From: Candidatus Latescibacterota bacterium | Lineage (GTDB): Bacteria; Latescibacterota; UBA2968; GCA-2709665 | NCBI GenBank assembly: GCA_965222075.1 | Contig: OZ244937.1 | Location: 2,464,001 to 2,528,000 of the forward strand | Direction: 5' to 3' | Length of the DNA: 64,000 nt | Shown here: positions 27,951 through 42,933 of the stretch, piece by piece | Layout: each line of letters begins with the position of its first letter | Numbering within the stretch: position 1 is the first letter of the stretch | Program-made: the position numbers and the translations under genes | The notes under the pieces: model-generated | Told to the model about the DNA's origin: nothing | Databases searched by the model: none | The model's input: only the letters and a program-made list of their open reading frames with translations

Positions 27951-28793
27951 TTATCCAGTAGGATAGGCACAGTCTGCATTTCCATTATCATAACTCCAAT
28001 AAACCATTGTTGCACTATCTTTTCCCTTTTCTTGATCAACCCTTTTCAACACTTCCAACACATTTGATTTGATCCCAACTTGCCCATCTGTGTTCTTCCT
28101 GGATAAACTCTCATAAAGGAATTCGGAATTCTCAAAAGGTCGAGACCCGCATTCCAATAATCCATCAGTGATCATGACTATCTGATTCTCGCTTTTTCTC
28201 AATTCTCTTGTTCCTGATGTATAACAGGGTACCGGCAAATCAAAAGAACTCACCTGCCCAATCCACTCATAATAGCTCCTTTGATTTAGAGCGTACTGGC
28301 CAAGATGGGCCAGCTCCGAATGGAACAAATAAATAAGGCAGTCTCCAATTGAAAACCACCATAAAAACCGATCTCTTTGAACACAGATCAAGCAAGCAGT
28401 TTCCCCTCGAATCTGTTTGCATTTGGTCTTAAAATCCTCCGAAGTGAACAGATCAATAAGAAGCCGGTGTAGTAATGAAAATAGCTTCTCTACGGGTAGA
28501 CCCAAAATGGCAGTAATGCGCTCTTCCTCTGATTCAATCATATCCAGAACCAATTTCGCGCTTTGAATGCTATTGTGAGCATCGAGCAATACTGCAAACT
28601 TCCAAGCCCCATTTTCTGCACACCAAACTAAAGCTCCATCCTCATTTTTGACAGCACCAGCGTCTGAATTGCCTCCATAACAGCCGACAATGACATCTCT
28701 ACAAGTTTGGATGGTGGGTTCATCCAAATACATATTATCACTGCCTAACCACCTAAATTTCAAGATGTTTCCATGATGCTCCGGAGTTTCCAT
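27951..28793 (-). CDS. PP2C-domain protein phosphatase-like protein, AT-rich
   Basis: KNEDG, LLDAH, FSIGDC, MITDGL, KDSAT metal-binding motifs. Confidence 0.75.
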   Translation of the reverse strand: METPEHHGNILKFRWLGSDNMYLDEPTIQTCRDVIVGCYGGNSDAGAVKNEDGALVWCAENGAWKFAVLLDAHNSIQSAKLVLDMIESEEERITAILGLPVEKLFSLLHRLLIDLFTSEDFKTKCKQIRGETACLICVQRDRFLWWFSIGDCLIYLFHSELAHLGQYALNQRSYYEWIGQVSSFDLPVPCYTSGTRELRKSENQIVMITDGLLECGSRPFENSEFLYESLSRKNTDGQVGIKSNVLEVLKRVDQEKGKDSATMVYWSYDNGNADCAYPTG

Positions 28794-28814: not shown

Positions 28815-31800
28815 GCTTCAATGAGGCCGCCTGCCTGTGCGGTGCACGCAGACAGGCGATCTAATGACCGCGGAAATAACCGGATACACGGACAGGGGGG
28901 TTAGGGGGGGAATGCTTCAATGAGGCCGCCTGCCTGTGCGGTGCACGCAGACAGGCGATCTAATGACCGCGGAAATGATGGATTCCGATTTCACTCCGGG
29001 GGTGACGCGATACCTGCTTCAATGAGGCCGCGATCTAATGACCGCGGAAATCCGAGGCACATATATCATACCCTGGCAAAAATCGTTGCTTCAATGAGGC
29101 CGCGATCTAATGACCGCGGAAATCCAGATGGACAGCACGGCTCATCGTGGTGGCTATATGCTTCAATGAGGCCGCGATCTAATGACCGCGGAAATGACGC
29201 CCCCGACGACCTCATAAAGAAATTCTACGACGAGCTTCAATGAGGCCGCGATCTAATGACCGCGGAAATGTGGGGTGGCAGCGGGCAAGAGGGGTATGAA
29301 GGCGATGCTTCAATGAGGCCGCGATCTAATGACCGCGGAAATACGAATTCGGATCCGCCTTCGGGGAGCTCGACGTCGCTTCAATGAGGCCGCGATCTAA
29401 TGACCGCAGAAATAGGCTGGGCAAGGGCAAGTCCGGCCCCATCCCTCATATGCTTCAATGAGGCCGCGATCTAATGACCGCGGAAATGTACTTTGGTATT
29501 CTGATTATGGCTTTGTTTCGGGGGCTTCAATGAGGCCGCGATCTAATGACCGCGGAAATGGATATGGACAGGTCAATACGAGAGGCGCTAATCAGGCTTC
29601 AATGAGGCCGCGATCTAATGACCGCGGAAATGGACCGGAAGGTAATCCATGACCGTATCGACAGACACGCTTCAATGAGGCCGCGATCTAATGACCGCGG
29701 AAATCCCACACACCGCCAGCACCCAGGCCGGCCGTCGTGATGCTTCAATGAGGCCGCGATCTAATGACCGCGGAAATCAGGATCACCAGCCGCAATGGGT
29801 ATGCCGGGTTGCCATATTGCTTCAATGAGGCCGCGATCTAATGACCGCGGAAATAAGCACCAGGAAGCACAAGACGCCACCTCCGAGAGGAGCTTCAATG
29901 AGGCCGCGATCTAATGACCGCGGAAATAGGGGTGCTTCGGGCCTTGCTGCCTTGCAACATATAGCTTCAATGAGGCCGCGATCTAATGACCGCGGAAATG
30001 CCCACCAACGCGATGCACACTTTACGCCAGGCATACGGCTTCAATGAGGCCGCGATCTAATGACCGCGGAAATAGGGCGAGGGAGAGGGGGGCGCGAATC
30101 AGTTCACTATGCTTCAATGAGGCCGCGATCTAATGACCGCGGAAATGTCGGGCCGGTGTTCCATGTCGAGCACGGTGCCCCCGCTTCAATGAGGCCGCGA
30201 TCTAATGACCGCGGAAATATGCTATGGTAATCTTTGAGCCGGCGAACGTTAAGTAGCTTCAATGAGGCCGCGATCTAATGACCGCGGAAATCACTTCAGA
30301 CCAGAACGAGAAGACCCGATATGACAAGCTTCAATGAGGCCGCGATCTAATGACCGCGGAAATATAGGTGGCCCCCTCAAGGCTATTCGCCATACCCTGG
30401 CTTCAATGAGGCCGCGATCTAATGACCGCGGAAATCGCTGTCGGGCAACTCACAATGGAGTAACTCTGCCTCGCTTCAATGAGGCCGCGATCTAATGACC
30501 GCGGAAATGACGTGAAATACGGCCTCAGCAACTTCGAGGACAAGACGGCTTCAATGAGGCCGCGATCTAATGACCGCGGAAATTCATCGTATGCCATTTC
30601 AACCCATTTCTCTTGACCTTGCTTCAATGAGGCCGCGATCTAATGACCGCGGAAATCACCCTCAGCCCGGCGGGCGCCGAGCCCTGGCCGTAGGCTTCAA
30701 TGAGGCCGCGATCTAATGACCGCGGAAATTCTTGGGGCCGGAGACGCTGCATCAGCTTCAGTGGTTTGCTTCAATGAGGCCGCGATCTAATGACCGCGGA
30801 AATTACACTATCGGATCGGCAAGCACAACGGGTTTCATTTGCTTCAATGAGGCCGCGATCTAATGACCGCGGAAATGCGGAAATTCTTGCGCTGGTTGCG
30901 TCGTTCCGCGACGTCGCTTCAATGAGGCCGCGATCTAATGACCGCGGAAATAATCTTTGGGGTGCGCCATGCTCACTCTCCGCTCTCGCTTCAATGAGGC
31001 CGCGATCTAATGACCGCGGAAATTTCAATGACGGTGTTCGCGACGGTGCCAAATTTGACGCTTCAATGAGGCCGCGATCTAATGACCGCGGAAATTTGGT
31101 GATTTATCAACTGGCTTTGAGTGACCTATTTCGCTTCAATGAGGCCGCGATCTAATGACCGCGGAAATGTATGGCGTAGAAATCGCCCCGGTGCTGACCA
31201 CCTCGCTTCAATGAGGCCGCGATCTAATGACCGCGGAAATGTGCTGATGGCCGAGACCCTGGAGGCGTGTATCAATCGGCTTCAATGAGGCCGCGATCTA
31301 ATGACCGCGGAAATTCGAAGTCGTCGTCGTCCTTATCGCAGGCGTAAAGGCTTCAATGAGGCCGCGATCTAATGACCGCGGAAATTTAATCTCATTCGCC
31401 GTCTTCGTCAGGCTGTTCAAAGCTTCAATGAGGCCGCGATCTAATGACCGCGGAAATCCTATGGCGTAGACCAGTTTCCCCCTCTGGGCGTCTTGCTTCA
31501 ATGAGGCCGCGATCTAATGACCGCGGAAATATGGCGAAAGCGAAAGCGGAAGCCTTGCATCAAAGCGCTTCAATGAGGCCGCGATCTAATGACCGCGGAA
31601 ATGCAGCTGGGGTCCGTCTCTGAGGTCATCGACAACAAGCTTCAATGAGGCCGCGATCTAATGACCGCGGAAATGCAGCTGGGGTCCGTCTCTGAGGTCA
31701 TCGACAACAAGCTTCAATGAGGCCGCGATCTAATGACCGCGGAAATGCAACCCGAAGCTCCGTTACCGGCGCAAGTCTGACAGGCTTCAATGAGGCCGCG

Positions 31801-32475
31801 ATCTAATGACCGCGGAAATCGTTCTTTGATTCTCTTTCATAACTTCGATCAGATAGCTTCAATGAGGCCGCGATCTAATGACCGCGGAAATGCGCCGGGG
31901 TGGGCCTTAATCCCGCTGAGCTCAAAGATGCTTCAATGAGGCCGCGATCTAATGACCGCGGAAATGCGGCAATTGCGCGCCGACCTTGTACGCCTGTTCC
32001 TTGCTTCAATGAGGCCGCGATCTAATGACCGCGGAAATCATGTTGTATACGGTGAAAAACGGCATCATGATTTGCTTCAATGAGGCCGCGATCTAATGAC
32101 CGCGGAAATGAGCTGGGCGTCGTCACACAGATGCGTGGGGGCCTCCTGCTTCAATGAGGCCGCGATCTAATGACCGCGGAAATAGTAAAAAACTTTGAGG
32201 ACCGAGAGCATGGAACGAAAGCTTCAATGAGGCCGCGATCTAATGACCGCGGAAATGCATAAGGGGCTGATCATGACAAAAGTCTACGTATCAGCTTCAA
32301 TGAGGCCGCGATCTAATGACCGCGGAAATTCTGGGCGCGTATGTTGCACGCAGGGTCCAAAACAGGCTTCAATGAGGCCGCGATCTAATGACCGCGGAAA
32401 TGATCTGAACGAAGAGCGGGCCGAGCGGGACGATACCCTGCTTCAATGAGGCCGCGATCTAATGACCGCGGAAAT
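28815..32475 (-). CRISPR. Type I-G (I-U) CRISPR array, 50 repeats / 49 spacers; repeat ATTTCCGCGGTCATTAGATCGCGGCCTCATTGAAGC
   Basis: 36-bp repeats counted by hand, spacers ~35-41 bp; 3' ATTGAAGC handle; leader on cas1 side; two trailer repeats are 63 bp; one point variant at 29408. Confidence 0.98.
28830..28856. mobile_element. 27-bp palindromic mini-insertion in terminal CRISPR repeat (second copy 28929-28955)
   Basis: CCTGCCTGTGCGGTGCACGCAGACAGG; removal restores exact consensus repeat. Confidence 0.85.
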
Positions 32476-32659
32476 AGCCTATACCGTAATCAACTTATTT
32501 TCAACAACCTGCCCAGGCAAATGCGAGCGGCCACATCCCAGACGCCTGAATCCGAATCCTCCACTGATCCCTCCTATGTTTAAGTGACTGTAAACATTGC
32601 CTCTTCAACCGACGCGAGCACCCTCCGGATTTTCCTCGCCGCCTCGCCGCTCGCAAGGC
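32476..32659 (-). promoter_or_regulatory. CRISPR leader
   Basis: Non-coding segment between cas1 stop and first repeat, with TGCGAGCGG (32522-32530) / CCGCTCGCA (32647-32655) inverted motifs. Confidence 0.8.
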
Positions 32660-34465
32660 TCAGCGCGTTACAAAAACCGGGTACCTGCTCAACTCGCCCT
32701 GAAGCGTTTTGGCGAGCAGACGGGCCTGGATTTCGAGTAATCGCCGATAACTGACACGATAGTCGAAGAGAGGATGCGTAACCAGCGTGTTCATCCGAGC
32801 CTCATACGCGCGGAAGAACCCTTTTCGACCTGCAACCGTCAACGCAACCGCGTTCCCCGAAGACACGAAGTCGCGCTCGGAGACCATCTTTGTGTTCACC
32901 GCGCTGAGCACGGCAGAGTCCACGATCAGGGGACGTAGCGGTTCCATCAGATCTAACGCCAGCGCCGGCCGGCCATGACGCGGCTGATGATAGAAACCGA
33001 TCATCGGATCAAAGCCAACAGCATAGCAGGCAACGGTCAGATCCTTCGTCAGGAGGCTATAGCCGAGCGACAACAGGGCATTGACGGGGTCGCGCGGCGG
33101 CCGGCGATTCCTGGCCTGAAAATTGAAGGAGAACGCCGGATCGCCGTCCCATTCTTCGTCGCGTTTCAACATGCCTCCGAACAACCCGAAATAGATGCGT
33201 GCCGCCCAGCCCTCAAAGCCCAACAGTTCTTCAAGCGACCCGGCCGTTTCCGCTTGACCTACGATCCACGTCAATTCACGCAACACCGCCCTGGACGGTT
33301 CGATGTGATTGCGCCGCAGCATCGTTCGTTGATTGCGAATCTTGCCTGCCACGAGTTGGCGGGCAAGGCGCAGGCAGTACCAGGGTTCGTCGGATAGACG
33401 GAACTGCGCCTGCCGCAAGAAGACGTTCTTCGTGTTGAGCCCGGACGTGACCCCGTAGAACCATCCCCCCTGGGAAAAGTAGCAGATAGGGATCTCCGCC
33501 GTACACAATGCCTGCACGGCCTGCGTGGTCATTTGAACACTGCCCATCAGGCTGACCTGGCAGATCTCGTTGATGCGCACTTCCTGAACCACCTTGTCAC
33601 GCTCTTTGACGCGGAGGACGCCGTTGCTCTTGCCCACGCGCAGTCTATGGGAATTCAAATACAGAGGCTTCTGGTCGGTGCGCGGCGCGACAAGGCGTCG
33701 GACCTCCTGGACCGCAGGTTTCAGGCTTTGTCGCGTGCCATGGAACAAGTCGAGCTGTTCCGCGCCTTCGGGCTCGATGTGAGCTTGCAGATGCCAGGTC
33801 TCATCCGGCATACAGATACCGACCAACGAGCAGCCGGGGCACTTGGGCGAGTCAATGAGTGGCGGCGGTATCTCGATCGCCGCGGCCGTCGTCCACGCCT
33901 CCGCGATGGCTCGCTCGGCTTCGGCGATCGTCTCGTCGTCGAAAGGCACACGCACCCGCTGTCGCGTCTTATGGTAGAAAATGACGCCTTCGTCACAGCA
34001 ATAGCCGTGGGCGCGCAACACGAGCGCCTGGACAGATAGTTGAACGCGGTCGTTGGGCCAGGCTTCCACACCGTGCTCACTGGCCATTGGACGGCCGTGT
34101 TTGTAATCGACCGGCGTGACCCGCCCCTCCGTGAATTCTGCCAAATCCAGCTTGGCGATGACGCGATGTTCTTCCGACGACAGCGTGATTGACCGCACGA
34201 CGACGGGCGCTTCCGATTCTTCACCTGTCTGCGTGCGGTGACGCACAGGCAGGTCGGGCCGGGGCGCCGCCTGTGCTTCCCGGTCGACGCGCTTGTGCTG
34301 GACCGCCCCCTCGGCGGTGTGCTCGTTGTGGACAAAGATACCTTCCACTTGTTCGAAGTAGAACAGCCGCGGGCAATAGACATACTCATTGATCATGCGC
34401 GCGGGGAGATAGTCGGGCAACGGCCGACGGGACGCGTGAAGTTCCTGAGCGGGGGGAGCGCTCAT
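32660..34465 (-). CDS. cas1: Cas4-Cas1 fusion
   Basis: YCPRL, KLD, PVDYK, KCPGCSLVGIC (Cas4); NQRTMLRRN, GFEG, RPPRDPVNALLS, DLMEPLRP (Cas1). Confidence 0.95.
   Translation of the reverse strand: MSAPPAQELHASRRPLPDYLPARMINEYVYCPRLFYFEQVEGIFVHNEHTAEGAVQHKRVDREAQAAPRPDLPVRHRTQTGEESEAPVVVRSITLSSEEHRVIAKLDLAEFTEGRVTPVDYKHGRPMASEHGVEAWPNDRVQLSVQALVLRAHGYCCDEGVIFYHKTRQRVRVPFDDETIAEAERAIAEAWTTAAAIEIPPPLIDSPKCPGCSLVGICMPDETWHLQAHIEPEGAEQLDLFHGTRQSLKPAVQEVRRLVAPRTDQKPLYLNSHRLRVGKSNGVLRVKERDKVVQEVRINEICQVSLMGSVQMTTQAVQALCTAEIPICYFSQGGWFYGVTSGLNTKNVFLRQAQFRLSDEPWYCLRLARQLVAGKIRNQRTMLRRNHIEPSRAVLRELTWIVGQAETAGSLEELLGFEGWAARIYFGLFGGMLKRDEEWDGDPAFSFNFQARNRRPPRDPVNALLSLGYSLLTKDLTVACYAVGFDPMIGFYHQPRHGRPALALDLMEPLRPLIVDSAVLSAVNTKMVSERDFVSSGNAVALTVAGRKGFFRAYEARMNTLVTHPLFDYRVSYRRLLEIQARLLAKTLQGELSRYPVFVTR
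34224..34253. mobile_element. 30-bp palindromic mini-insertion, in frame in cas4 domain
   Basis: CCTGTCTGCGTGCGGTGACGCACAGGCAGG; arms match the element in the CRISPR repeats. Confidence 0.8.
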
Positions 34466-34482: not shown

Positions 34483-34779
<297 letters not shown>

Positions 34780-34875
34780 TCAGAAGGTTGATCTATGTTT
34801 CGGTGCTGTGCGCTGGAGCATTCGTGCGAGATAGAGAACTTGGACTGTTCAACACGCGCCGTAAACCCGTCGGGC

Positions 34876-34916
34876 TTACGGAATAACCTCAAAGCCCATC
34901 TGTCGGTAGACCTCAC
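34876..34916 (-). pseudogene. Remnant of VapC/PIN toxin
   Basis: GTG overlaps antitoxin stop (GTGA); YRQMGFEVIP* resembles PIN C-terminus (FxxxGF). Confidence 0.55.
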
Positions 34917-35164
34917 CGGTACAGCACTTCATCGTGCAGTGCGGCAACGTCCCCCGATTCGGATTTACCAACGGCTGGGGCCTGGTACAGCGAATCAGAT
35001 TCCAGTGGCGCGTTTCCGATCGGTGGACTGCCAACCGGGACGATGTCGAAAGCCGGACGACTGCGGTATAGAACGGTAAATCGCTCCCCGCGCCGCACTC
35101 TCTTAACGACATCCTGCAGGCGCTCTCGAAGCTGTTTGGCGCTGATCACCTCTGGCATAGTCAT
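34913..35164 (-). CDS. Phd/YefM-family antitoxin
   Basis: ISAKQLRERLQDVVKRVRRGERFTVLYRSRPAFDIVP; AAGGAG SD. Confidence 0.85.
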   Translation of the reverse strand: MTMPEVISAKQLRERLQDVVKRVRRGERFTVLYRSRPAFDIVPVGSPPIGNAPLESDSLYQAPAVGKSESGDVAALHDEVLYR

Positions 35165-35171
35165 GCTCCTT

Positions 35172-35213
35172 TCAAGTTTAACTCAAGATAATCTTTTCTC
35201 GAAAGCGATACAA
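35172..35213 (-). promoter_or_regulatory. Antitoxin promoter/operator (copy A)
   Basis: TTGTAT-N17-TATCTT followed by AGTT-N-AACT dyad. Confidence 0.7.
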
Positions 35214-35234
35214 GCACCCAAGCTCTACTGGACG

Positions 35235-36845
35235 TTAATCACGTGCGAACATTCCAAGGCCAAAATGGCAGGCATAGCCAAGAGCTAAGGGTCCCTTAAT
35301 TGGCTCGTTAAAACTCAGGCGCAGCAAGGCCCCTTGCGCGTCGGGTTGTTTCTCTCGCCCCCGCGAACGGAACCGGTGAAAATGGACTGGTCGGCGGGAA
35401 ACACCATGGACCTTGATGTTGCTCAAGATCTCGACTTGAACAGGCCCAGTACGCGAACTGGATGCGATCTCCCGGCGTTTCCAAAGCCGGTTTACCTCGC
35501 CCTCATAGCCAGCCTTTTTCAAATGACCAGCCGCCAAAAAGGGCGTTATGCTGACCCATTCATCGGAACAGCCAAATAGCCTTGATGTATCCGCAAAGTC
35601 CTCCGGGCGGCCAAAGCCCTCCAGGGCCAGCCGCCATTCCTGGCGGCCGCTCTCTTCATCTCCTTCTTCTCCACCGGAATCGTTTCTGCTGACCCACAAT
35701 CGGGTCAAGCGATCCAGCTTCTCGCGCACTGCGGCATCGAAACCTTCCTCTGCGTAAACCGATATGTGGTCAATCCAGCCATCGCCATCGGCGTCCTCGG
35801 GCAGCCAAAAAGCGTGAGAATGCCGACCGTCTCGCAAAGGTTTGTTGTCGGGACCGCGGCCCGAGATCACCGACGGCGCTTTGGGTCTCCTGTTCTTCCA
35901 ACCGAACTTGGAAAGCACGGCCAGCCGCATGAGTTCGCCGATCTTGACTGCGTCCTCAATGCGAGGTAGTGGACGGCCGGCCAGGAGATAGCGCGCTACG
36001 GTGAAACGATTGCGGCCAACGGCGTGGCGACGCGGACTAACATGTCGCGGAACGGGCGACAGCGGCGGACGAATGTAAACGATCTCGCGTGCGGCCGGCG
36101 GCCGATTCCAGCGGTACTTCTGGTAATCGGCCGTATCAAGCGTCAAGGCGTCGGACAAGCGTTCCGGCAAGGTCGGCCCAAACGCCTCGTTGTGCGCCCT
36201 TTCAAGTGCTTTGGGCGTGGGGAGTCTCTTGCCGGAAGCAGCGGCGCGGGAACGCTCTGCATCGTCGGCTTCCTCTAACAGGCGCGTGCGTTCTACGGCA
36301 TAGTCCCTGGCACTGCGCGGCACGAGCAACCGCACCGCTTCCCCGTCAGTGGCCCCATTTTGGCCGACCAGGCGGCAGTTTGTCTCTCCCCCCCAGTCGA
36401 TTGTCGCTTCGCAGTCAACCCAACTCTCGGCACGGCCCAAGTAGCCGATCCCTTCGGCGAGGTCGGCCGCCAAGTCAAAAAGATTTGCGTCCAATTCGAG
36501 TTCCGGCCAAACCGCTACGATCTTCTCGCCTTTGGGAAGGTGTGCGAAGGCGTCGAAGACGAGCGTCGTCTTCACCGGCGCGGGCATGTAGTGCCGGGTA
36601 TGCGCATGGATCGCGCCTTCGGGCAGGTGGTAGATCGGCACATCCTCGGCGAGCGCGTCCATTAGCCGGGCGAGCGCGTCCTCGGACCAGCGCACCCTGT
36701 CTCCCTTACGCCAATAGCTGGCGACGAGCGCCCGGAGAATGCGCCACGGCTCCGGCGGCCAAGCGACATCGGCTTCGTTGACATGGCGTCCCCACGGGGT
36801 GGCGTGATAGCGGCCCGTGGGGAAGCTGAAAGTAAGCGCGAACAT
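35235..36845 (-). CDS. csb2: Type I-G Csb2 (Cas5/Cas6 fusion)
   Basis: GRYHATPWG..VNE..WPPEPWRILRAL, YLGRAESW, GPLALGYACHFGLG. Confidence 0.92.
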   Translation of the reverse strand: MFALTFSFPTGRYHATPWGRHVNEADVAWPPEPWRILRALVASYWRKGDRVRWSEDALARLMDALAEDVPIYHLPEGAIHAHTRHYMPAPVKTTLVFDAFAHLPKGEKIVAVWPELELDANLFDLAADLAEGIGYLGRAESWVDCEATIDWGGETNCRLVGQNGATDGEAVRLLVPRSARDYAVERTRLLEEADDAERSRAAASGKRLPTPKALERAHNEAFGPTLPERLSDALTLDTADYQKYRWNRPPAAREIVYIRPPLSPVPRHVSPRRHAVGRNRFTVARYLLAGRPLPRIEDAVKIGELMRLAVLSKFGWKNRRPKAPSVISGRGPDNKPLRDGRHSHAFWLPEDADGDGWIDHISVYAEEGFDAAVREKLDRLTRLWVSRNDSGGEEGDEESGRQEWRLALEGFGRPEDFADTSRLFGCSDEWVSITPFLAAGHLKKAGYEGEVNRLWKRREIASSSRTGPVQVEILSNIKVHGVSRRPVHFHRFRSRGREKQPDAQGALLRLSFNEPIKGPLALGYACHFGLGMFARD

Positions 36846-36852
36846 TCAAGAC

Positions 36853-40118
<3,266 letters not shown>

Positions 40119-40129
<11 letters not shown>

Positions 40130-42551
40130 ATCCACCATCCAGTTCTTCTTTTGCTGATGCCCGCCAGTCCGCAATACGCACCAGTGCCTCCAGCAAAGCA
40201 AGCCGGAAAGGGCCGTACTGGGAAAGCAAGTGGCGCGTACGCTCGGTCCAACTCGCGCCTGTTTCCGGATGCTCCCCCAACTCCATCACGGATAGTGCGA
40301 GCGGCCCGCCGGACCAGGTTTCCCCATCGCCCAAGTCAACCGGCGGTACCTCATCACCCTCCCACACACCGCGTGCAAAACGGCGGCTACCATCTTCCAT
40401 TGCCGGCCTTTCGGCCGGAAGCGGACGCAAGTTCAGACGCACCTTGCCGTGATGGGCGGCGATCAGGTACGCAACCAGATCCGCCTCACGCACCCAGTCC
40501 GCTTGTGAGAGGATCGCGAGCGCAGACGCCAGCTCGTGCCGGAAATACGCACGTCCTTTCGTCCGGTCGTATTTCGGAGCCTTGGCTAACAACCCCTTCG
40601 GTCTTGAATCGGCCTCCAGATTACTCGCAACCATCCGTGCCTGAAATTCAGGGTGTGCCTTGCCGAGGTCGTGCCAGTACGCTGCCCGCACAATCGCTGC
40701 TTTCCAAGCTTCACAAACGCCGAGGCCATCGCACAGGTGACCAGCTTCAAAAGCCACGTGATCCAGATGGTCCGTCAGGCCCACGAACCCTCCCTGCTCG
40801 CTGTCAGAATCGGCGTCGTTCGACTCGTCTGCTGCCTGTGAGGGCAACTTCGCCGACTCCACGGGCTCGACTGCTGCTTTAATTGTCTGATCGAATCCCG
40901 TTTCCGGCGCGTACCCTCCGGCATTCGCATGAACCAACAATACCAAGCCCGGCCAAGGTGCCTCGCTGAACTCGGTCCAAGCAGGGACCCTGCCCTTACT
41001 TTCAGCTCGTGCCTGCGGGTCTATACGAAACACCCGCTGTCCTTCCTTTTTTCTTACATTCTCAAGCCAATTGCGCGCGCGCCCAATCGGAACCGCACAA
41101 AGCTCGTCCCGCATCGGCGCGGGCTGATCCTCCAGTCCAGTCGAAACGTCGAAATTGCGCCAGAAAACGCGAATATCGGTATCCTCGGCATCGCGGATGT
41201 AGGGAGCGACATCGACATCAAAACCGGTCAAATCTGGATCGGTGTCGTATAGGTCCAGCATATCCCTAGATCGCATCACCCACTGATGGGCGCAATCGTC
41301 GACTGCCGGCGGCACGAGATTGGACGGCCGGGCGTCCGTCAACACAGCAATCCGCTCGCGCCCGATTTTGAGCTCGTCAATCTCATAAGGAGCGGCCAGC
41401 GAATCATCGAGATCGCCACCGCTGAGATCAATCCAGCGGATCCTCCCGCCGCCGGAATCGTTCAATTCTCCGTAGCGGTTCACCCGACCAAACCGCTGGA
41501 CGAGGGACGAGGCGGGCGCGAGTTCGGTGAGCATGACCGCCGCCGAAAGATCGACACCCGCTTCAATCGCCTGCGTCGCAACGACAATCAAGTCTTTCAC
41601 TTCCCCAGGCTCCGGCAGCTTGTCCATCTGCGCTTTGCGGTCTTTGGGCCGAAAGCGCGAGTGAATGAGGGCGAGGCGGGTGGGCGGAATATCCTTTTTC
41701 TGGAGTTCCTTATGCACAGCTTGAGCGCGGGCGACGGTATTGACCACCACGAGCGTCGTGCGGTTCCCTTGGTGCAGATGCAGAGTTTCCTCCGCCAACG
41801 CCGTGGCGTAGGCATCCAGATCGTCTTTCTTGTCGCTCACAGGTGCGACGGGTGTCTGTTGAATCGGCTTGGGCGCGTCAATCAGCTTGCGGACATGCGG
41901 CGATTGCGCGTCTTCGGGGAAATCGTCTGGAACGCGCCAAACTGTCGGACTTTGCTGGAAATCAACCGTGCATAGCCAGTCTGGATGAAGGGTCGCCGAC
42001 ACCCAGAGACTGCGCGAGGCAATCTCCGTCCCCAATTTGCGGCGAAAGCCTTCAAGTTGTGTGGAGGTCGCCAGTCCCGAGCCCATGAGTTGCACCTCGT
42101 CAAAGACCCACTGCGCGTCGTTGTGCAGCAACGCGAAGTCCACCGGCCAGCGGAAGCGGCTCATGGCGTACCCCCGCATCAGGGCGCGACTGAGCAGCAT
42201 GTCTTGTGTCCCAATCAGGATGGCCGGATGCTCGGGGTTTTCAAACCAGCGCGGTTCGTCAATGCCCCCCATCAGGACATGGACTCCGGTTTCGGGATCC
42301 GGCAGGCGCGATTTCCAGTGCATATCTGCTTCGCCCAGCCGTCGCAGCCATTCTCTGACATTCCGCTCCGTCTGGTCAACGAGTGTGCGCATCGGCAGGC
42401 AATAGACGAGGCGACGTGGATCGTATGGCGTCAACATCCGGTAAGTGGCCGAGGCGCCCATTATCCGTTTGAGTTTGGCCATCGAAGGAGTGAGTCCAGT
42501 GTTCTCGCCATCACTCTCCAAAGGCTGCTTCGTGTCGTTGTCGGAGTTCAC
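40119..42551 (-). CDS. cas3: Type I-G Cas3 (SF2 helicase + C-terminal HD nuclease) lacking Walker A
   Basis: GTG after AGGAG; RRLVYCLPMRTLV, DEVQ, SAT, QRFGRVNR; HD motifs HDLGK, RHE, HHG, ADW; no GKT in protein. Confidence 0.9.
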
Positions 42552-42584
42552 GCAATTGCTCCTGTGAGGGTTCGACCCGGTTCC

Positions 42585-42933
42585 CGACGCCAACATGAAC
42601 GCGTCCACGGGAATGAGCCGCTCATTCACGGGGTCAATGCCCAAGCTGAATATCTCCAAAGTGACAGCGCCAAGCAGCGGTTGCACGCAGAACACAACAG
42701 GCGAAATGTCCTCGCGGCCGCAGTCGCATCCAGGTCCTTCCAAAGCCTCGCTCAACGCGGCTGCCATCGGCGAGGACGAACCTCCGGACACTGTGCGGAA
42801 CCACGCCCAAGCGCTCGAGGATCGAAGCCGGAAGGACTGTGCAGGTCGCCCCGGAGTCCACCATGGCTTCGACGGTTTCGTAATGGCGGCCTTCCGGATC
42901 AGCCACCTCGAGCGGCACAATAAACGTACGCAT
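42585..42933 (-). pseudogene. Clan AA (retropepsin-like) aspartic protease, frameshifted
   Basis: AMVDSGAT active site, FVLADG; C-half PLLGAVTLE..LGIDPVNERL in another frame (shift near 42720). Confidence 0.75.

Follow-up and report, generated by a model that had tools for sequence, protein, structure and literature searches.

A 30-nucleotide in-frame segment of a Latescibacterota cas4/cas1 gene is probably one copy of a dispersed family of tiny mobile hairpins

The window analyzed here is a 64,000-nucleotide (nt) stretch of the genome of a Candidatus Latescibacterota bacterium (GenBank assembly GCA_965222075.1, contig OZ244937.1, positions 2,464,001 to 2,528,000). It contains a type I-G CRISPR-cas locus whose cas4/cas1 fusion gene is interrupted, in frame, by a 30-nt imperfect hairpin. 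We judge that this segment is probably one copy of a dispersed family of tiny (mostly 25- to 36-nt), nonautonomous mobile hairpins. Members of the family share the terminal stem CCTG(C/T)CTG...CAG(A/G)CAGG, and they have inserted into genes, CRISPR repeats, one another, and intergenic DNA. The segment and its host gene have the following window coordinates.

34224 to 34253, minus strand: mini-element, a 30-nt imperfect hairpin in the A orientation on the coding strand, in frame, encoding residues 78 to 87, with flanks CCCGA^...^TGAA
32660 to 34483, minus strand: cas4g/cas1g fusion gene of 607 amino acids (aa), host of the insertion (NF049935 Cas4g/Cas1g, 740 bits)

On the minus strand, positions 34224 to 34253 read CCTGCCTGTGCG-TCACC-GCACGCAGACAGG. 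The gapped-arm pattern of this copy occurs a single time in the window and was absent from all of 100 dinucleotide-preserving shuffles of it. The original prediction, made from the letters of the window, held that the 30 nt are an insertion whose removal restores CCC GAT GAA GAA (PDEE) and that homologs should show a 10-residue gap at LPVRHRTQTG. The first point can be read directly from the sequence. The second was borne out by aligning the query with 27 of 120 listed Cas4-Cas1 homologs (63 to 88% identical): exactly these 10 residues faced a gap in 27/27, and none carried the segment as conserved protein sequence. This gap lies where the Cas4 part is least conserved, in its most variable linker, and the query keeps all alignment-invariant columns in an intact gene. 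Residues 64 to 93 were coil in an AlphaFold2 model of poor quality (28 sequences, mean pLDDT of 50.2). Rfam gave no match at the element.

Public sequencing runs from three other studies contained contigs with the element at the cas4 site. The left junction was bridged by one contig (X4 record 15), and a 159-nt contig from an RNA library (X14 record 1, aligning to window positions 34152 to 34310) spanned the whole element with 2 mismatches and no gap. The spanning contig is consistent with retention of the element in the transcript; DNA carry-over is possible in that library. X14 consists of metatranscriptome libraries labeled sponge metagenome, in which short contigs of the cas4/cas1 gene are present. 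No contig that skips the element was found in the public runs; empty alleles are still possible. The contigs of X2 and X6, and those at the right junction in X4, ended inside the element with fewer than 31 letters past the junction and therefore did not bridge it, as expected from the way in which short, high-copy-number repeats break assemblies. The summed read depth of the two bins that contain the element was ~70 to 210 times that of neighboring bins, depending on the run, and all four runs held many contigs that matched only the element and continued into unrelated flanks. Carriers outside this genome are mostly metagenome-assembled genomes, which could be taken to indicate an assembly or sequencing artifact. 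We regard this as almost certainly wrong: the element occurs in contigs named as by several assemblers and in long, chromosome-scale records, the contigs at the cas4 site come from three other studies, and the frame and phase bias described below has no technical cause.

Copies were counted in the whole genome, a single 5.36-Mb contig with 59.3% G+C. Strict copies were defined by the exact termini CCTG[CT]CTG...CAG[AG]CAGG with 5 to 30 nt between them. This pattern gave 241 matches that resolve to 222 minimal copies, compared with 0, 0, 0, 0, 1, and 0 matches for six controls with scrambled but still complementary termini. When one mismatch per terminus was allowed, 475 merged sites were obtained. 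The 222 copies represent 133 distinct sequences, and the main lengths are 33 nt (93 copies), 27 nt (50), 30 nt (19), 25 nt (17), and 36 nt (13). Two classes account for nearly all of them: 99 copies are asymmetric, with termini CCTGCCTG...CAGACAGG, and in 119 the termini are symmetric. Most copies are solitary (181/222), adjacent pairs of the asymmetric class are direct in 10 cases versus inverted in 2, and 18/222 copies are nested inside another copy, usually at its loop. The 30-mer had no blastn match at an E value of ≤1 among PLSDB plasmids or INPHARED phages; nine viral contigs carried the element.

The two other strict copies in the window lie in the CRISPR array next to cas4/cas1.

28815 to 32476, minus strand (orientation taken from the 3' motif of the repeat): CRISPR array of ~50 repeats with a 36-nt unit that reads GCTTCAATGAGGCCGCGATCTAATGACCGCGGAAAT on the plus strand
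28830 to 28856, plus strand: mini-element of 27 nt, GTG-loop variant, in the outermost CRISPR repeat, inserted at GGCCG^CGATC
28929 to 28955, plus strand: 27-nt mini-element identical to the preceding one and placed at the corresponding site in the second CRISPR repeat

The repeats at 28815 to 28877 and 28914 to 28976 are 63 nt long versus 36 nt for the unit, and each has CCTGCCTGTGCGGTGCACGCAGACAGG between GGCCG and CGATC; the 48 other repeats of the array have no insert. As had been proposed, the cas4 copy and the repeat copy have their arms in common and differ in the loop alone, which is shorter in the repeat copy. We suspect that both repeat copies stem from a single insertion, which was then multiplied when repeats were duplicated or recombined. 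In reverse complement, the repeat ends in ATTGAAGC, which we take to be the 3' motif that marks orientation. Transcription of the array is therefore predicted to run on the minus strand from the cas side, which would place the two insertion-bearing repeats at the trailer end.

The original prediction noticed three copies, all in the CRISPR locus. These are indeed the only strict copies in the window, but the family as a whole occurs throughout the genome and in other phyla and is not specific to CRISPR. The 14.1-kb CRISPR-cas locus holds 3 strict copies versus ~0.58 expected (Poisson P of ≥3 copies = 0.02), a figure that becomes 0.12 for ≥2 copies if the two repeat copies count as one event. 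Enrichment in the locus is thus at most weak. An element that targets CRISPR-Cas loci as a form of antidefense sabotage would produce such a cluster. We consider this highly improbable, since 219/222 strict copies lie elsewhere and the repeat copies are probably one event. In addition, the invariant residues of cas4/cas1 are kept, 48 of ~50 repeats are intact, and the foot at the repeat site, GCCG, is noncanonical, occurring once among the 91 oriented flanks described below.

The relation of the family to genes was assessed with genes called by our own codon-usage model, which was trained on long open reading frames (ORFs) and is not curated, a point that counts against our reading of the genic copies; it gave 3,689 genes and a coding fraction of 85.5%. 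By this annotation, the 222 copies divide into 88 in coding sequences (CDS), 131 in intergenic DNA, and 3 at gene edges. Because 40% of copies are in CDS in a genome that is 85.5% coding, the family is strongly depleted from genes. Lengths that are multiples of three (3n), previously noted for the two variants in the window, proved to be a feature of the family, and the bias is stronger in genes (82/88 CDS copies) than in intergenic DNA (98/131; Fisher p = 5e-4). In high-confidence genes, 56/58 copies have 3n lengths. Among these 58, 33 start at codon position 3 (phase 2) and are read in the frame Leu-Pro-Ala/Val...Gln-Ala/Thr-Gly (p = 2e-4 versus equal use of frames), while the other frames give Pro-Ala-Cys in 16 and Cys-Leu in 9. 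All six frames are free of stop codons in 201/222 copies, compared with 26% of random genomic segments of the same length and 40% of shuffled copies. A second example of an insertion into a conserved protein is a CusA-like RND permease (G000:C1:1498725-1501964), in which the 9-residue insert LPVRRTQTG is absent from 18/18 aligned homologs (18 of 120 listed). Since genic copies are almost always 3n, stop-free, and in a preferred frame, they are translated as loops of 8 to 13 residues and filtered by selection, which eliminates frame-breaking copies.

These data also bear on whether the hairpin might be a functional motif, such as a binding site, a terminator, or an uptake signal, that was spread by selection or gene conversion. 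The intergenic majority of copies would suit this idea, because hairpins in such positions can act on transcripts; repetitive extragenic palindromes (REPs) have roles of this kind (PMC6006769). However, depletion from genes combined with a 3n filter points to insertions that are tolerated, and presence or absence is clean at paralogous sites, copies are nested, and the insertions are absent from all aligned homologs. A selected motif is therefore largely refuted and very unlikely.

Direct evidence of movement came from two copies of an insertion sequence (IS) in the same genome, listed here in coordinates of the whole contig together with the mini-elements that distinguish them.

G000:C1:2831000-2833300 and G000:C1:3463300-3465600: two ISLre2-like (UPF0236, PF06782) copies, ~99.5% identical over ~1.75 kb
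Second ISLre2-like copy, at GCGGA^TGCG: 27-mer, from the paralog alignment
Second ISLre2-like copy, at GCCGA^TTTG: 27-mer identical to the CRISPR-repeat copy, from the paralog alignment
Second ISLre2-like copy, at GCGCA^TCGA: 25-mer, from the paralog alignment
Second ISLre2-like copy, at ACAGA^TGAT: 25-mer, from the paralog alignment

These four mini-elements have no counterpart in the first ISLre2-like copy, while two further mini-elements are common to both. Each difference between the paralogs is exactly CCTG...(C/A)(A/G)GG, with no base duplicated or lost and a single possible placement. The paralogs have thus undergone either four insertions or four precise excisions since they diverged. 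Because IS paralogs that are still 99.5% identical differ by four precise insertions, mobility is recent. The four differences fall within ~1 kb, and one of the 25-mers would shift the frame of the transposase.

The original prediction had noted that the variants in the window lack target site duplications (TSDs), and the family as a whole does not generate them. Direct repeats at the flanks measured 0 nt in 169/222 copies and at most 4 nt in the remainder, and the four pairs of filled and empty paralogous sites show no duplication. This result bears on a further possibility, namely, that the element is a minimal MITE (miniature inverted-repeat transposable element), the terminal-inverted-repeat-only remnant of a DDE transposon. 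The arms do look like 12- to 13-bp inverted repeats joined by a few bases. The lack of TSDs and of any longer element with extended arms makes such an origin scarcely credible. An autonomous parent with the same termini was sought as pairs of solo 8-mers 300 to 4,000 nt apart and was rejected, because extended arms were not shared in the first 60 of 85 pairs. Together, the homolog gaps, the census (222 copies versus 0 or 1 in controls), the 3n lengths, and the missing TSDs establish a real family and support the original view of a tiny, frame-preserving, nonautonomous element.

Insertion occurs mainly at a purine^pyrimidine (R^Y) step. The original prediction had proposed this step for the copies in the window, and it is present at 175/222 junctions genome-wide (G^C at 79, A^T at 58). 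In 156/222 copies the flanking R and Y could lengthen the stem by one pair. For target analysis, copies of the asymmetric class were oriented and duplicate flanks were removed, which left 91 copies. Their 5' flank has C at -4 in 72 copies, G/C at -2 in 77, and A/G at -1 in 87, followed by Y at +1 in 83. The tetranucleotide foot CCGA was observed 18 times versus 0.55 expected, and the feet listed for oriented copies include CCGA, CAGA, CGCG, CCCG, and similar sequences. A CnGA foot is also found at 5/6 copies in the ISLre2-like paralogs. The symmetric class has the same flank signal, weaker and on one side. Empty paralogous sites demonstrate that the tetranucleotide belongs to the target and not to the inserted DNA. 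The hairpin has a folding z of approximately -2.2, and its two strands differ: CCTGTCTG...CAGGCAGG contains G.T pairs and has a folding energy of -9.1 kcal/mol, while its complement, with C.A mismatches at those positions, reaches -7.9 kcal/mol.

A hairpin specific to one strand, the lack of TSDs, and an oriented tetranucleotide target make HuH-Y1 chemistry the likeliest means of movement. We tentatively suggest, with confidence somewhat short of an even chance, that the family is moved in trans by single-strand "peel and paste" chemistry of the type used by IS200/IS605 TnpA and RAYT enzymes. The enzyme would recognize the folded hairpin on one strand and would cut after the target tetranucleotide.

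Several observations weigh against this mechanism. No cognate enzyme for the family was found in the genomes examined. In the source genome, the only intact IS200-like tnpA has end hairpins that do not resemble the element, and there is no family core within 1.5 kb of it; the genome also has two IS200-like remnants and no TnpB (PF07282). Its intact RAYT-like gene, P0125, lies between GTAG-footed hairpins, GTAGCACAAACTG-N3-CAGTTTGTG, that are unique to the surroundings of this gene. Among ~20 Y1- or RAYT-like loci in relatives and distant genomes, one adjoins a family copy (33 nt, 7 nt past the stop codon, at L146). PF01797 counts do not track copy numbers (32 matches versus 2 copies in genome G004 and 75 matches versus 0 to 1 copies in G038), and in a Spirochaetaceae genome with 19 forward and 22 reverse copies, the only Y1 sequence is a 44-aa fragment and NF047646 has no match. 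With the origin and terminus placed by cumulative GC skew, the asymmetric class is split 60:39 between the two orientations relative to replication (p = 0.04) and the symmetric class 48:51, which may indicate a weak bias. The target preference is also not uniform. In 133 foreign copies with full flanks, G is at -1 in 109 and C/T is at +1 in 109, and the commonest foot is TTTG (16 copies), followed by TGCG (10) and CCGA (6). From this NNYG^Y consensus, the R^Y step is general, while the CnGA preference is a property of the lineage of the source genome. Lastly, IS200/IS605 elements have two distinct subterminal hairpins versus the single 25- to 36-nt hairpin here, and the hairpin type associated with class 3 TnpAY1 enzymes (compared below) has only 3 near-matches in this genome, with 3 mismatches each.

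A search with PF01797 at an E value of ≤10 returned IS200-like and RAYT-like matches alone and no further Y1 match in the genome. One IS200-like tnpA N-terminal remnant (G000:C1:611297-611461) is split by a 33-nt element that is nested in the loop of a 25-nt element. The RAYT-like genes were examined together with their surroundings.

G000:C1:3242104-3242871: P0125, an intact RAYT-like gene whose 255-aa product has HVH and Y motifs (NF047646, 55.6 bits, below the cut-off of 80)

A motif related to the GTAG-footed hairpin lies inside the P0125 gene itself, and orthologs of P0125 in four relatives (70 to 82% identity) have the same GTAG-footed flanks. In relatives, a second RAYT type (P0124-type) has CGAGGGCA hairpins on its flanks and, in frame, even within the gene. 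At five loci of this type (L146 to L150, in genomes G021, G018, G009, G020, and G002), hairpins of the form xCGAGGGCA-N3-4-TGCCCTCGx lie around the gene. The peptide RGQDALD is repeated at the N terminus of 2 of 3 translated second-type RAYTs (P0123 and P0124) and would be the in-frame translation of the hairpin; some matches to this type lie in open frames of 1,203 to 1,441 aa.

The original prediction suggested a search for a co-occurring recombinase or transposase. A RAYT-like match to P0125 (E value of ≤1e-5) is present in 12/13 genomes with at least 14 forward matches to the family pattern versus 5/28 with at most 6 (Fisher p = 9e-6, with a threshold chosen after the data were seen and genomes that are kin and not independent). 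RAYT-like genes therefore co-occur with element load, yet none is flanked by family copies. Given the post hoc threshold, the kinship of the genomes, and the fact that the RAYT genes have REPs of their own, we treat this association as a lead and not as support.

Other candidates were considered and set aside. In an Opitutales genome (G044, L187 to L191), a ~1-kb unit with conserved ends and at least 8 copies, which gives it the look of an IS, encodes a 327-aa RAYT-like protein. It was rejected as the mobilizer because its ends are not bounded by CCTGCCTG hairpins. The neighbors of element clusters with Pfam matches were ISLre2-like UPF0236 (twice), an outer membrane protein beta-barrel, a KAP NTPase, and DDE_Tnp_1, none of which was taken to be a hairpin mobilizer. 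Thirteen genes have copies on both sides; a screen for the H-u-H motif matched 2 of them, and none was recognizable as a candidate by that screen.

The absence of an HuH-Y1 gene tied to the family leaves room for another recombinase that acts on folded hairpins or short palindromes, whether a tyrosine recombinase (integron-like, as on attC), a serine recombinase (IS607-like), or an IS110-type enzyme. Exact boundaries without TSDs fit site-specific recombination, and the asymmetry between strands, with a conserved mismatch or bulge, is reminiscent of attC recognition. At the G^C site in the CRISPR repeat, both junctions could share a GC dinucleotide. At A^T sites, however, the junctions are AC and GT and have no common dinucleotide, which makes a 2-bp crossover core unfit. 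The 13 copy-flanked genes also provided no candidate by the HuH-motif screen, in which tyrosine, serine, and IS110 enzymes were not covered. On this evidence we consider another recombinase unlikely, although it deserves to be kept in mind.

Alternatively, no dedicated enzyme may be involved, and hairpins that are released as oligonucleotides or extruded at replication forks could enter nicks through copying or ligation by the core proteins of replication and repair. Such a route would account for how the family spreads across phyla without a cotraveling gene, why a mobilizer was found in none of the genomes examined, and why a genome with ~20 copies can do without an intact Y1 gene; the capacity of flanking R and Y to extend the stem in most copies is also in its favor. 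On the other hand, an oriented preference for CCGA and a range of 0 to 165 copies in close relatives that have the same core machinery suggest that some variable, specific factor is at work, and the arrival of identical sequences in other phyla would be left unexplained. We find such a passive route improbable and retain HuH-Y1 chemistry as the working proposal.

The distribution of the family is patchy. In 40 relatives, the pattern matched 0 to 165 times per strand, with a range of 0 to 164 within one genus, while the reversed pattern gave 0 matches. In a scan of the phylum (168 genomes), at least 14 forward matches were found in 13 genomes only, and the rest had 0 to 4. Twelve of these 13 element-rich genomes belong to the source genome's own family, and 1 belongs to a sister family. 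A scan for exact arms in one genome per species nevertheless yielded at least 124 loci outside the source genome's own family. The matches listed include Desulfobacterota and other "delta" lineages; Zeta-, Alpha-, and Gammaproteobacteria; Campylobacterota; Planctomycetota (Brocadia, Kuenenia, and Phycisphaerae); Verrucomicrobiota with Kiritimatiellae and Lentisphaerae; Methylomirabilota; WOR-3; Bipolaricaulota; Patescibacteria; Spirochaetota; Actinomycetota; Bacteroidota; Thermotogota; and others. By their record titles, these represent at least 15 phyla.

The exact-arm loci in other lineages have unrelated flanks that are often A+T-rich, and nested copies occur there too. Forward and reverse counts in whole genomes were 19/22 in the Spirochaetaceae, 32/51 in the Opitutales, 10/11 in Kuenenia, and 1/3 in a deltaproteobacterium, with 0 matches in reversed-pattern controls; a genome from the source genome's own family gave 55/52 in the same count. 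The family's uneven occurrence in its own phylum, taken with the exact-arm copies found in many others, suggests that it has spread horizontally.

If this account is correct, mobile DNA can be reduced to a bare hairpin of <40 nt that still spreads within and between phyla. A protein-compatible hairpin (3n, six open frames, LPA...QAG) could colonize coding sequences, CRISPR repeats, and transposons in many phyla. It would also be a steady source of short in-frame protein insertions, including those in a CRISPR adaptation enzyme and a metal efflux pump. The family would provide an annotation signature that explains lineage-specific loops of 9 to 12 residues, "degenerate" CRISPR repeats, and contig breaks in metagenomes. 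The question of which enzyme recognizes the CCTGYCTG stem and the target tetranucleotide becomes approachable through relatives with a patchy content of 0 to ~165 copies. It is conceivable, but less likely than not, that this gene-less, protein-compatible hairpin of 25 to 36 nt, moved by an enzyme or a host process outside recognized REP/RAYT or IS200 systems, is the smallest mobile DNA known to cross between bacterial phyla.

The remaining genes of the locus form a series upstream of cas4/cas1 on the same strand.

34483 to 42920, minus strand: rest of the type I-G cas operon, of which cas4/cas1 is the last gene
34483 to 34773, minus strand: cas2
35235 to 36845, minus strand: csb2
36853 to 38001, minus strand: cas7g
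37799 to 40201, minus strand: cas8g/csx17
40119 to 42920, minus strand: cas3g

The longest-ORF calls for cas8g and cas7g overlap by ~200 nt (37799 to 38001), and the start of cas7g is probably downstream of its first TTG. Within the array, the neighboring spacers at 31614 to 31654 and 31686 to 31726 share their first 25 nt, CCGTCTCTGAGGTCATCGACAACAA, which suggests a duplicated spacer-repeat unit. Just past the trailer end of the array, a 280-aa ORF (27951 to 28793, minus strand) has no NCBIfam match at an E value of ≤1e-5.

Among known systems, REPs are the first to be compared. They are short, G+C-rich, imperfect hairpins of 21 to 65 nt, present in tens to hundreds of copies with several subfamilies per genome, and they have a patchy taxonomic distribution and a tetranucleotide beside the foot (PMC6006769). 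The family described here is likewise a short, G+C-rich, imperfect hairpin with many dispersed copies (222 strict). However, it has no GT[AG]G foot, and GTAG is not one of the 25 commonest feet of the 91 oriented copies. Copies of the family do not flank any RAYT gene in the manner of a REPtron, and the RAYTs of this lineage have REPs of their own, including xCGAGGGCA-N4-TGCCCTCGx. REPs are also extragenic and often form inverted doublets, whereas 88/222 copies of this family are in CDS and 181/222 are solitary.

The hairpins beside genes of class 3 TnpAY1, a rare class of Y1 proteins, have a 5' foot CnGA and reach ~600 copies in Solibacter usitatus; Planctomycetes, Acidobacteria, and Proteobacteria are the groups that carry such hairpins (Quentin et al. 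2018, PMC6006769). The oriented 5' flank in the present genome is similarly CnGA-like, but the published sequence, GCCGCGACCGTnAGGGAGCGG, is unlike the family. No class 3 Y1 gene was found beside the hairpins by PF01797 at an E value of ≤10, a search in which no class 3 protein served as a query. With IS200/IS605 elements and PATEs, the family shares the lack of TSDs, oriented insertion 3' of a tetranucleotide, an irregular hairpin, and one better-folding strand. It lacks TnpB, any lagging-strand bias seems to be weak, and IS200-like tnpA does not track it.

The small dispersed repeats (SDRs) of Nostoc and other cyanobacteria are reportedly 21- to 27-nt hairpins that are mobile by the evidence of orthologous sites, can be nested, and have no known mobilizer. 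The present family is alike in kind in its size, nesting, and mobility; SDRs were described within one phylum, whereas the present family occurs across phyla. Rickettsia palindromic elements (RPEs) are said to be palindromic selfish repeats that lie in frame in genes and add peptides to proteins, with a length of ~100 to 150 bp and a distribution confined to one genus. The in-frame habit is alike, but the family is four to five times shorter than RPEs and crosses phyla. A review cites RPEs for repeats fused internally into coding sequences (PMC3184786). The family differs from DDE MITEs in having no TSD, and no longer element with the same ends was found.

A literature search that did not extend to supplements or subscription journals found no description of the family, and the arm sequences occurred in 6 papers that, judged by title and abstract, deal with unrelated subjects; a Geobacter genome paper (PMC2700814) describes other multicopy sequences. 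The family is unusual in being minimal in size, in having 40% of its copies in genes under a clear frame filter, and in occurring as near-identical copies in many phyla, all at once.

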